Assembly (NCBI GenBank): GCA_021463485.1 | Contig: JAJTYJ010000003.1 | Coordinates: 88,380 to 152,379, forward strand | Reading direction: 5' to 3' | Length of the DNA: 64,000 nucleotides | DNA from: a bacterium | GTDB taxonomy: Bacteria; Patescibacteriota; UBA1384; 2-12-FULL-50-11 | Shown here: piece by piece, positions 56,012-58,831 of the stretch | Position numbering within the stretch: the stretch's first letter is position 1 | Layout: each line of letters opens with the position of its first letter | Notes under the pieces: generated by a model | What the model was told of the DNA's origin: nothing | The model's input: only the letters and a program-made list of their open reading frames with translations | Databases searched by the model: none | Translations under genes and position numbers: made by a program

Positions 56012-58831
56012 CTACCCTGAAACAATGAGATTAAGCACTTCACCGGGCTTATAAATACGCTTAACAATGGGGCGATTGAGTAGCGTTTTCTCAACTTGAG
56101 GATCTTGTAGCGCGGCAGAAACTGCTGACTCTTCGTCATCAGCGGTAAGTTCAACAGTGGCAATAAACTTCTGGTTTATTAGCACTTTAATTGTTTCTAA
56201 GCGCTCAATAGTCGTTGCCTTTGGCCAGCTTGCCGCAAACACCGACCCCGGATAATTAGAACTAAACGATTTCTCCCAAAGTTCCTCCGCCAGAAACGGG
56301 TAGATAGGGGAGAGAGTAATAATAAATTTCTGGAAATCGCCGCGAGAAATAGTTTCCAACTTCTCCCAATTATTTATTAATTTCATCGCCTCGGCGACTA
56401 CTGTATTAAGCCTGAATTCAGCGATCATCGGTTCGATAGATGCTAAATAATTATTCAACTCATCGCTCGGCTTGGCTGAATCGGATACTTTTTCTACAAG
56501 TTTATACAGCCGAATCAGGAAACGATGAATGCCGCTGATGCCGCGCGGATTCCATTCGACGTCAATCTCCATCGGACCCATAAACAGCTCGTAACCACGC
56601 AGTGCGTCGGTACCGTAATGCTCAATAAGCGGATCTGGTGATACAACGTTCCCCTTGCTCTTACTCATCTTACTGCCGTGTAGGTTAACCATGCCGATGT
56701 TGTAGAGCTGCATGAACGGCTCGGTTATCTTTGCGTCGATGTAACCGTGCTTAGCCAAGAAACGAGTAACAAATCGCGCGTACAATAAATGAAGCGTCGC
56801 GTGCTCGATACCGCCGATATACAAATCGACTGGCAGCCAATCATTAACTGTTTTTTTATCAAACGCTTGCTTTTCGTCGGTAGGGGATAGGTATCGCAAA
56901 AAGTACCACGACGAGTCGACGAAGGTGTCTAGAGTGTCGGTGTCGAAATACCACCCCTTGCCGTAGAGCGTTTCGGCGCGTTCTTTATATTCTGCCGAGC
57001 GAGCAATAGGACTTTCGCCGCCTGGCAGAAAGTCGACGTCTTCAGGAAGTCTAAGCGGTAAATGCTCCTCCTTAACAGGGTGTGGCTGTCCCTGTGGATC
57101 GTAAACGATCGGAATCGGCGCACCCCAGTATCGCTGACGGCTGACTAACCAGTCCCTCAGACGATACGTTGTAACGGCTTTCCCAAGTTTTTTCTTTTCA
57201 AGATCTTTCGTTATTTTTTCTGATGCTTCGTCGCTGCTTAATCCGGAGTACGAACCAGAATCAGTCAAACGACCCTTGCCGGTGTAAATTTGCTTATTAA
57301 CCAGGAAGTGAAATGAGAGAATATGCGACTCGTCTACAATTAAACGCTCGACCTCAGATTTAGTTAGCCACTCGATCTTAAATTTATCGATCTCGTTGTC
57401 TTCTAATTTTGTTGGGTCTTGCTTTTTACTTTTTAACCTAAAGTGAAGCCCCGTAACGTCAATAATCCGATTAACACCCTTTGAGTAAGCGCGGTAATGG
57501 TGGTGTAGCGTGCCGGTCTGCCCGATTAGCTCTAAGTCAGTGTAACCAGTTTCTTCAGCAATTTCGCGCCGAGCTGTAATTTCCGCATCTTCATTATTAT
57601 CTCTACCACCCCCGATAAAAAGTTGACCTCCAAGCTCTTTGCCCCAATTAAGCGTTAAGAATTTGCCTGTAGTTGGGTCTTCGACGATCGCGATAATGCT
57701 TTCACGAAATTCCTCGTTATCTAATACTTCACCGGTTTCAGGCTCGATTACTGGTTTAATTGGTAGTTTGTGTGTAGTTGCGAACTGGTAATCTCGCTCA
57801 TCATGAGCCGGCACGCACATCACCGCCCCAGTGCCGTATTCTAACAACACGTAATCAGCTAGGTAAATTGGAATTTCTTTATTGGTTAGCGGGTGGATTG
57901 CGAAACTACCGGTTTCGTAGGCCGTTTTTTCCGACTCTTTAGCTTGGGCGCGATCAACGTTGGTTTTAGCAGATACCGTTTGTAGATACTCCTGAAAACC
58001 ACCGCTACGCTCTGGTACTACTAACTCTTTTGCCAACTGGTGTTCAGGCGCTAACACAATCGCGGTTACGCCAAAAATCGTATCGATCCGAGTAGTGAAT
58101 ACCGGTATCTCGCTTGCTGAATCTTTAATTTTAAAGGAGAGCTCAACACCAACGGACTTACCGATCCAATTGCGTTGCAGGCTTTTTACCCGCTCCGGCC
58201 ACTTCACCTGCTCCAACCCATCGATCAGTTCTTGTGAGTACTTGGAAGTTTTTAAATACCACTGCGAGAGCTCTTTCTTGGTTACCTTGGCGCCGCAGCG
58301 ATCACAACAGCCGTTAACTACCTGTTCGTTTGCTAATACAGTCTGGTCGTTCGGACACCAGTTCACGAGCGATTTTCGCTTTTCGGCCATACCGTGTTTG
58401 AAAAACTGCAAAAACAGCCATTGCGTCCAGCGGTAATACTCTGGATCAGACGTGACTACGCGCTTTGACCAGTCGAAACATGCACCGAGCTGATTAAGTT
58501 GTTTTGTAAACGACTCTATGGCGTTGTCGGTAAACTTTTTCGGATGTGACTTATGTTTGATTGCCGCATTTTCAGCCGGCAAACCGAAGGCATCGAAGCC
58601 CATCGGATGAAGTACAGTCTTCCCTTGTAACATCTGGTAGCGCGCGTAAAAATCGCTCATAACGTATCCGCGCCAGTGGCCAACGTGCAAACCGTCACCA
58701 GAAGGGTACGGGAACATGTCTAGACAATAATATTTATCTTTACTCGATAAATCGGCAGTAGAAAGTTTATTTTTTTCCCAAACATCTCGCCATTTCTGCT
58801 CGATTTTTTGATGATTATAGTGACGATCCAT
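56012..58831 (-). CDS. leuS: Leucine-tRNA ligase with an embedded Nudix hydrolase domain (939 aa)
   Basis: HIGH ([12 protein letters not shown]) and KMSKS present; CP1 editing domain ([11 protein letters not shown]…[19 protein letters not shown]); a ~140-aa insert with a textbook Nudix box [23 protein letters not shown] lies before [14 protein letters not shown]. Confidence 0.95.
   Translation of the reverse strand: [939 protein letters not shown]

Follow-up and report, generated by a model that had tools for sequence, protein, structure and literature searches.

The leuS gene and its inserted Nudix domain

The stretch of DNA analysed here (the window) comprises 64,000 nucleotides of contig JAJTYJ010000003.1 (assembly GCA_021463485.1, forward-strand positions 88,380 to 152,379) from a bacterium of the GTDB lineage Bacteria; Patescibacteriota; UBA1384; 2-12-FULL-50-11. 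Its minus strand carries leuS, the gene for a bacterial-type leucyl-tRNA synthetase (LeuRS), and a complete Nudix hydrolase domain is nested inside the CP1 editing domain of this enzyme. The features of the gene are given below with residue numbers (aa) of the LeuRS protein. Conservation of the host motifs was read from an alignment of 104 relatives, which also served as the input for AlphaFold2 (AF2) modelling.

56012 to 58831, minus strand: leuS, bacterial-type leucyl-tRNA synthetase of 939 aa, host of the insert (open reading frame; TIGR00396)
58676 to 58687, minus strand: HIGH motif, here HVGH, aa 49-52, read from the sequence (H52 invariant, H49 near-invariant)
57713 to 58174, minus strand: CP1 editing domain upstream of the insert, PF13603 (tRNA-synt_1_2), aa 220-373, Pfam score 205.4 bits
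58079 to 58096, minus strand: threonine-rich editing motif TTRIDT, aa 246-251, from sequence and alignment (T247 and R248 invariant; T246, D250 and T251 near-invariant)
57791 to 57808, minus strand: editing-site motif AHDERD, aa 342-347, with the conserved aspartates D344 and D347, from sequence and alignment (A342, H343, D344, R346 and D347 all invariant)
57290 to 57721, minus strand: the insert itself, aa 371-514, which consists of a complete Nudix fold preceded by a beta extension, delimited by alignment to 1H3N
57347 to 57700, minus strand: Pfam NUDIX match, aa 378-495 (PF00293, E 7.9e-11, 42.5 bits, gathering cut-off 21.1)
57542 to 57610, minus strand: Nudix box G-x5-E-x7-R-E-U-x-E-E-x-G-U, aa 408-430, read from the sequence
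57152 to 57289, minus strand: remaining, C-terminal portion of CP1 with the linker that returns to the catalytic core, aa 515-560 (...TTYRLRD), aligning with Thermus thermophilus LeuRS from residue 376 onward (G520 and D560 invariant)
56657 to 56671, minus strand: KMSKS motif, aa 721-725, read from the sequence

The host enzyme is, judged by its sequence, an otherwise ordinary bacterial LeuRS with its synthetic and editing motifs intact. The protein scores 927.2 bits against the NCBIfam equivalog model TIGR00396 (leuS_bact; cut-off 548.4), and the class I catalytic core, the editing domain PF13603 and the anticodon-binding domain were all recognised by Pfam. The preliminary description, made from the letters alone, had read a LeuRS with HIGH, KMSKS and CP1 on this strand, and the reading frame, the motifs and the family model agree with it. 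The LeuRS enzymes of T. thermophilus (PDB 1H3N, 2BYT) and Escherichia coli (4AQ7, 4ARC) are 31-36% identical to the window enzyme and have the HIGH, KMSKS and threonine-rich motifs and the editing aspartates in common with it. The window enzyme differs from the T. thermophilus one by its insert and by the absence of the leucine-specific domain (T. thermophilus residues 578-636), a span which is bridged by aa 716-720 (region of nt 56657-56690). Relatives that lack the Nudix domain (771-819 aa) are short as well.

In the alignment with 1H3N, aa 4-370 correspond to T. thermophilus residues 3-369 and aa 515-716 to residues 376-578, leaving an insert of 144 aa where the T. thermophilus loop has about 6 residues. 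An insertion of about 140 residues between the end of CP1 (...IKPVI) and the RLRDW re-entry had been described beforehand, together with the Nudix box, and all the peptides quoted for it are present, the box lying exactly at the nucleotides given for it. The residues of the box are G408-GRDNN-E414-DAEITAR-R422-E423-I-A-E426-E427-T-G429-Y430, which is the canonical pattern. The significant Pfam match of the whole protein is borne out by the excised insert, which alone scores 47 bits against PF00293, well within the Nudix superfamily.

The full-length AF2 model has a mean predicted local distance difference test score (pLDDT) of 93.1 and a predicted template modelling (TM) score of 0.84, and in Foldseek comparisons it matched the T. 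thermophilus, E. coli and Neisseria gonorrhoeae LeuRS structures with target-normalised TM scores of 0.73-0.85, those of T. thermophilus and E. coli giving 0.80-0.85. Here the insert is predicted to fold as a complete Nudix domain with the alpha/beta/alpha sandwich of the superfamily, and not as ordinary CP1 or linker. The helix spanning residues 416-428 covers the Nudix box in a loop-helix-loop arrangement, and the N-terminal beta extension of the insert continues a CP1 strand. When the insert was modelled alone (pLDDT 94.4), the canonical order of Nudix strands and helices was obtained, with the box on helix 55-67 of that model. The models thus place the Nudix domain in a loop at the surface of the CP1 editing domain, as a domain within a domain. 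Since pLDDT is at least 95 through both linkers, a rigid packing of the Nudix domain on CP1 is also indicated.

Recurrence and conservation of the insert

The 120 best LeuRS relatives of the window protein were compared at the insertion site. An insert was found at the same position in 85 of them, so that the survey of orthologs bears out the arrangement. The span at this site measures 175-184 residues in all 85 sequences and 24-59 residues in the other 35. Set against the 180 residues of the window enzyme, relatives lacking Nudix have 35-40. The source names in this set (Berkelbacteria, Paceibacterota, Moranbacteria, Yanofskybacteria, Minisyncoccia) belong to lineages of the candidate phyla radiation (CPR), or Patescibacteria. 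Public sequences bearing the insert have precomputed PF00293 matches and are entered simply as leucine--tRNA ligase or as class I tRNA ligase family protein.

Residue conservation was counted over the 85 insert-bearing enzymes, which are 44-97% identical to the window protein. G408, E423, E427, G429 and K451 are invariant, W396, E480 and E426 are conserved in 99%, 96% and 94% of the sequences respectively, and position 422 is R or K in 85%. This is the pattern expected of a domain which is kept catalytically active, and purifying selection on catalysis would account for it. That the module might instead be a dead structural or RNA-binding element, or an artefact such as a frameshift, a chimera or an intein-like selfish insert, is very improbable. 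A dead module is at odds with the invariance of the catalytic glutamates E423 and E427 over 85 diverged sequences. The frameshift or assembly chimera, which the preliminary description had named as what could explain the insert away, is ruled out by the uninterrupted frame and by the recurrence of the LeuRS-Nudix architecture in more than 100 independent assemblies. On one closely related contig (that of relative P0003) the architecture is identical and the synteny is kept as well, with iPGM, a ferric-reductase-like gene, leuS, rpmF, nusB and rnc (six contigs).

An origin as a mobile element or intein was likewise considered and rejected. No intein or homing-endonuclease domain was found by Pfam in the window protein, no direct or inverted repeats flank the window insert, and there is no marked break in GC content or composition at it.

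Gain and loss of the module

The presence or absence of the insert was mapped on a neighbour-joining tree of the LeuRS core, from which the insert columns had been removed. At least 23 changes are required among its 119 tips. The closest pairs of enzymes with and without the insert have core identities of 95% (P0033/P0059), 90%, 88% and 82% (window/P0008), and the genes without the insert occupy the same locus.

In the 95% pair, the two genes (on loci L003 and L004) occupy one locus, with a small open reading frame and nusB downstream of them. On either side of a 456-nt Nudix indel the DNA of the two is about 90-95% identical, but it is much more diverged in the immediate flanks, and these strongly diverged flanks suggest that the difference arose by allele replacement through recombination. 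The two sequences come from two runs with neighbouring SRA accessions, a cassette-like dimorphism at one leuS locus. Relative P0008 has the same leuS-nusB-rnc context, and a 15-residue linker, DVDDASSQNRPQSST, stands in place of its Nudix insert. Both edges of the insert are kept (VIEP ... NKQxYTGKG), and P0008 is for this reason read as a deletion derivative.

Because LeuRS enzymes with cores 82-95% identical occur without the insert, the Nudix module is, on comparative grounds, not needed for aminoacylation or editing. The same comparisons indicate a module that is often gained, lost or swapped, and that is patchy though widespread in CPR/Patescibacteria.

Gene neighbourhood and mosaic structure of leuS

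leuS is flanked by rpmF, nusB and rnc on one side and by a ferric-reductase-like gene and iPGM on the other. The small rpmF gene (ribosomal protein L32) lies between leuS and nusB at about 55777 to 55989 on the minus strand and is too short for the cut-off of the initial list of open reading frames; its homologue on locus L049 matches Pfam Ribosomal_L32p. Open reading frames of the size of rpoB and rpoC are present elsewhere in the window, and the sole tRNA or Rfam match in the 64 kb is a tRNA-Ala(GGC) at 61706 to 61779 on the minus strand.

The window leuS is mosaic when compared with its 96%-identical relative (L049:3001-5820). At the nucleotide level the two genes differ by about 5% in the part encoding aa 1-360, by only 1.5% in that for aa 361-840 and by 10% in that for aa 841-939, and this unevenness suggests recombination tracts inside leuS. 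Within the insert, 0 nonsynonymous and 3 synonymous changes separate the two genes. A constraint specific to the insert was considered from this ratio of nonsynonymous to synonymous change and rejected, because the insert sits inside the low-divergence block aa 361-840 and the ratio therefore reflects the mosaic or recombination tract.

The wider family and its hosts

A word-indexed protein search with the excised insert returned only two small proteins, and it was an exhaustive profile search which revealed the family. At E<=1e-3 this search gave 7986 proteins; 514 remained at E<=1e-10 and 135 at E<=1e-30, the last group forming clusters which are mostly CPR LeuRS. The hosts of the best 150 cluster representatives were classified by means of hidden Markov models built in-house for LeuRS and for Nudix. 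LeuRS, whole or fragmentary, make up most of these; another 25 or so are free-standing proteins 150-200 aa long, and one is a prolyl-tRNA synthetase (ProRS). GTDB species genomes were also scanned with a narrow alignment of the insert. Among the matches listed, the best 30 loci were all embedded in LeuRS (30/30), and their titles, which are a sample of taxa, name Saccharibacteria, Uhrbacteria, Paceibacterota, Berkelbacteria, Taylorbacteria, Parcubacteria and Magasanikbacteria, a few metagenome-assembled genomes being labelled otherwise. The arrangement put forward in the preliminary description is thus real, and it is not peculiar to one genome, being common in public CPR/Patescibacteria sequences.

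The Nudix domain occupies at least four sites in LeuRS. In the coordinates of a Nudix-less profile these are about 200-229 (n=14), 230-239 (n=4), 360-409 (n=126) and 430-479 (n=4), and the site of the window enzyme is 360-409, with 126 domains. Some LeuRS carry two or three Nudix copies, and the identity between copies within one protein is only 23-46%, from which it follows that they are old and not assembly artefacts. In a neighbour-joining tree of the modules by site, which was poorly resolved, modules from different sites and free-standing ones are interspersed. The same subfamily was found in five ProRS (P0265, P0272-P0275; 641-674 aa) at about aa 390-535, between the anticodon-binding and C-terminal domains of an archaeal-type enzyme. 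Their nearest ProRS relatives (78-80% identical) are without Nudix, and the named relatives are Nanoarchaeota and Woesearchaeota. Taken by their sequences, the inserts form one distinct Nudix subfamily which in CPR is mainly found inside LeuRS, and which also occurs in a few DPANN-type ProRS and as stand-alone proteins about 160 aa long.

This spread of sites and hosts bears on the view, raised in the preliminary description, that the Nudix domain is an additional pre-transfer editing site, hydrolysing mis-activated aminoacyl-adenylates in cis. LeuRS misactivates norvaline, isoleucine and methionine, and the one point in favour of this view is the location of the module in the editing domain of LeuRS. 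However, LeuRS that are nearly identical manage without the module, and it is found elsewhere too: at further sites, as tandem copies, within ProRS and as free proteins. What Nudix enzymes break is a P-O-P bond in a nucleoside diphosphate-X compound, but the bond in an aminoacyl-adenylate is of the acyl-phosphate kind. In addition, CP1 retains its canonical hydrolytic site, with invariant residues. Because of these last two points above all, adenylate editing is considered the least probable of the explanations, and extremely so.

Other hydrolases share the same hosts. A Ser-hydrolase/alpha-beta-hydrolase domain (about 180 aa, GHSLGG, PF06821/PF00561) accompanies Nudix in some LeuRS. It is nested in four relatives (P0014, P0018, P0027, P0092) in another CP1 loop, after window aa 239 (about nt 58115), and in two more (P0178 and L034:2313-5756) at a different site, these positions lying either within CP1 or downstream of it. 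One LeuRS has a nested Ham1/ITPase domain (P0158, aa 984-1167; Ham1p_like, 197 bits), and HAD_2 phosphatase domains are nested in those of L022:777-5882 and L033:2340-5831. The first of these two, from Candidatus Taylorbacteria, is the most extreme: this LeuRS runs to 1702 aa and combines a HAD domain and an alpha/beta hydrolase with three copies of Nudix. Nested hydrolase modules are thus a broader feature of CPR LeuRS, to which the LeuRS-Nudix architecture belongs.

The domain is also found with a remnant of its host. Stand-alone proteins, about 285 aa long, combine a degenerate remnant of CP1 with Nudix (L029:3138-3998, with 37.8 bits to PF13603 and 54 bits to NUDIX, and L031:3147-4010, with similar scores), and their editing residues have been lost (AHDERD to AHIPEH). 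The gene in L029 adjoins Ham1, histidine phosphatase, GNAT and APH genes, and that in L031 adjoins cytidylate kinase and CYTH genes. The metagenome-assembled genomes of both loci are labelled Clostridia/Clostridiales.

These observations lend weight to the reading of the module as a pure passenger. LeuRS, and CP1 in particular, would then be a permissive carrier on which unrelated house-cleaning hydrolases are nested in reduced genomes for co-expression, and the Nudix domain would act on free nucleotides with no link to leucylation. The other nested hydrolases, the Taylorbacteria LeuRS with its five added domains, the existence of free-standing homologues, the Ham1, cytidylate kinase and CYTH genes beside the stand-alone CP1-remnant proteins, and the patchy presence on the core tree are all in line with it. 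A random passenger would, however, be expected in varied hosts, and among the 150 best representatives only synthetases were recognised as hosts (LeuRS and one ProRS confirmed by Pfam), about 10 longer non-LeuRS proteins having been partly scanned. The argument is weak, because vertical descent and intragenic duplication after one early insertion could explain the same bias. The passenger reading is thus a serious alternative, although we regard it as doubtful.

Relationship to known Nudix families

When the insert profile was compared with PDB sequences, the best matches were 2AZW (an Enterococcus faecalis Nudix protein of unknown function), the Aquifex Ap4A (diadenosine tetraphosphate) hydrolase (3I7U) and AvrM14. 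The structural neighbours of the insert include AvrM14, the T. thermophilus Ap6A hydrolase Ndx1, DDP1/DIPP, the ApnA (diadenosine polyphosphate) hydrolase Rv2985, the lupin and Caenorhabditis elegans Ap4A hydrolases, RppH and oomycete Nudix proteins. Foldseek with the insert model returned the same picture, including the Aquifex enzyme.

Family matches to NCBIfam and PADLOC models were counted over an alignment of 29 Nudix inserts. RppH/NudH models were matched weakly by 27 of the 29 (best E 1.1e-6 for NF001938 and 3.1e-8 for its sibling NF001936), while NudB and YtkD were matched by 21, far under the curated cut-offs. Membership of the MutT 8-oxo-dGTPase family (TIGR00586/NF008044) is not indicated, as 5-9 of the 29 inserts match with E no better than 3e-4 and the window insert has no match to these models at E<=0.01. 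The PADLOC candidate PDC-S07 was matched weakly by 18 inserts (best E 1.1e-5), a result which is not interpretable, and it was not matched by the window's own insert.

From these comparisons the insert is placed nearest to the branch of RppH/NudH, ApnA hydrolases and decapping enzymes, as a member of no curated subfamily. Its identity to representatives of this group (2AZW, 3I7U, Ndx1, E. coli RppH, AvrM14) is only 14-24%. Those enzymes are minimal, single-domain and free-standing, whereas the window's domain is nested in a domain of another enzyme and, according to the model, has an N-terminal beta extension continuing a CP1 strand which they lack.

This placement gives some ground for an enzyme acting on RNA ends. 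The module would remove 5' triphosphates or caps (NAD, Np4A) in the manner of RppH or NudC, or a nucleotide modification of the tRNA end at CP1, and in one variant it could be part of a conflict or immunity system against toxins which modify tRNA or mimic adenylates. The most consistent of the weak family matches are the RNA pyrophosphohydrolases RppH and YtkD, and the structural neighbours include RppH and, as decapping effectors, AvrM14 and oomycete Nudix proteins. CP1 is the domain which binds the tRNA 3' end. The fast turnover of presence and absence, and the cassette-like allele replacement between 95%-identical genes, also resemble accessory or conflict genes. The weak PDC-S07 matches of 18 of the 29 inserts can be counted on this side as well. 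Against this, the family matches lie far below the cut-offs and mostly reflect the shared Nudix box, and no defence-island context was established for leuS with its neighbours rpmF, nusB and rnc on one side and the ferric-reductase-like gene and iPGM on the other. Further, the module also stands at non-CP1 sites and, in ProRS, between the anticodon-binding and C-terminal domains, so that no fixed geometry towards the tRNA end is suggested. An RNA-end enzyme is consequently judged improbable.

Proposed function of the nested module

The explanation which we favour, with confidence slightly better than even, is that the module is an accessory nucleotide pyrophosphohydrolase carried by the synthetase. 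The Nudix module is probably catalytically active. It would be produced 1:1 with the synthetase and held rigidly on CP1, and the glutamates E423, E426 and E427 of the REIAEE segment would bind Mg2+ and hydrolyse the P-O-P bond of a nucleoside-polyphosphate compound, while aminoacylation and CP1 editing would run independently of it.

Synthetases are the cellular source of Ap4A, which they form from aminoacyl-adenylate and ATP, and (di)nucleoside polyphosphates of the ApnA or NudH-RppH type, for example Ap4A, would be the most likely substrate class. Hydrolysis of Ap4A or other ApnA compounds, which the preliminary description had also suggested for Ap4A and Ap3A, is viable because the nearest sequence and structure neighbours include ApnA hydrolases and RppH/NudH, and it fits the origin of Ap4A and the fact that the second host is also a synthetase. 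An ApnA-type substrate is nevertheless put forward tentatively. The next candidate is a non-canonical NTP, the substrate of a house-cleaning enzyme, which seems rather less probable, and some other substrate is about equally so. RNA 5' ends or caps are unlikely as the substrate.

Several observations weigh against this explanation or the substrate assigned under it. E414, the first glutamate of the box, is conserved in only 69% of the 85 insert-bearing LeuRS. The insert scores 18.9 bits against a cut-off of 116 for NF001938, and with the sibling models too it falls outside RppH/NudH; its matches to all the curated Nudix subfamily models are far below cut-off, structural neighbours with different specificities differ by only 1-2 Z units, and no substrate-specific motif was identified in the insert. 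The co-nested Ham1, HAD and Ser-hydrolase domains fit generic house-cleaning about as well, and so do the nucleotide-metabolism neighbours of the stand-alone forms. Finally, the frequent loss of the insert tells against an indispensable coupling to aminoacylation.

The co-nested domains also allow a more far-reaching proposal, in which the Nudix, Ham1, HAD and Ser-hydrolase modules of LeuRS form an on-enzyme protection system against nucleotide-type poisons or modifications aimed at the aminoacylation machinery. Its targets may be adenylate-mimic toxins, pyrophosphorylated, ADP-ribosylated or capped tRNA ends, or Np4N alarmones. We hold this proposal to be quite improbable. Were it true, the modules would be gained, lost and swapped between alleles so rapidly because episymbiotic CPR and DPANN cells are engaged in an arms race.

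Novelty and significance

The architecture of aminoacyl-tRNA synthetases is generally regarded as conservative in bacteria, and additional catalytic domains as for the most part a eukaryotic feature. A bacterial class Ia synthetase with an unrelated enzyme domain is also represented by NF040702 (isoleucine--tRNA ligase, N-acetyltransferase domain-containing). There the added domain is GNAT whereas in the window enzyme it is Nudix, and the window protein matches this model via the synthetase core only (65 bits, cut-off 1999). E. coli RppH-DapF (PDB 6D13, 6VCK), whose structures are among the fold neighbours of the insert, offers a precedent in which a Nudix pyrophosphohydrolase works while bound to a housekeeping enzyme of another kind. 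That association is non-covalent and made with diaminopimelate epimerase; in the window the Nudix domain is joined to a synthetase, covalently and by nesting.

No description of a LeuRS-Nudix fusion was found in a full-text literature search, in which subscription journals were outside coverage, and this accords with the preliminary description, which knew of none. In one article (PMC7159879), Nudix and synthetases are mentioned in unrelated contexts. The two domains are thus known and the sequences already public, and it is the recurrent nested arrangement that is undescribed in the searched literature. The current names of these proteins (leucine--tRNA ligase, class I tRNA ligase family protein) mention the synthetase alone, and the finding has a bearing on their annotation.

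Our study reveals that the editing domain of an essential synthetase houses another enzyme, which is apparently active, an arrangement which recurs in the ultra-small CPR bacteria and, with ProRS as the host, in DPANN-like archaea. The near-identical alleles with and without the module form a natural experiment, which could show whether by-products of the synthetase are processed in cis. The module would thereby offer a testable handle on nucleotide house-cleaning or Ap4A turnover in symbionts with reduced genomes.

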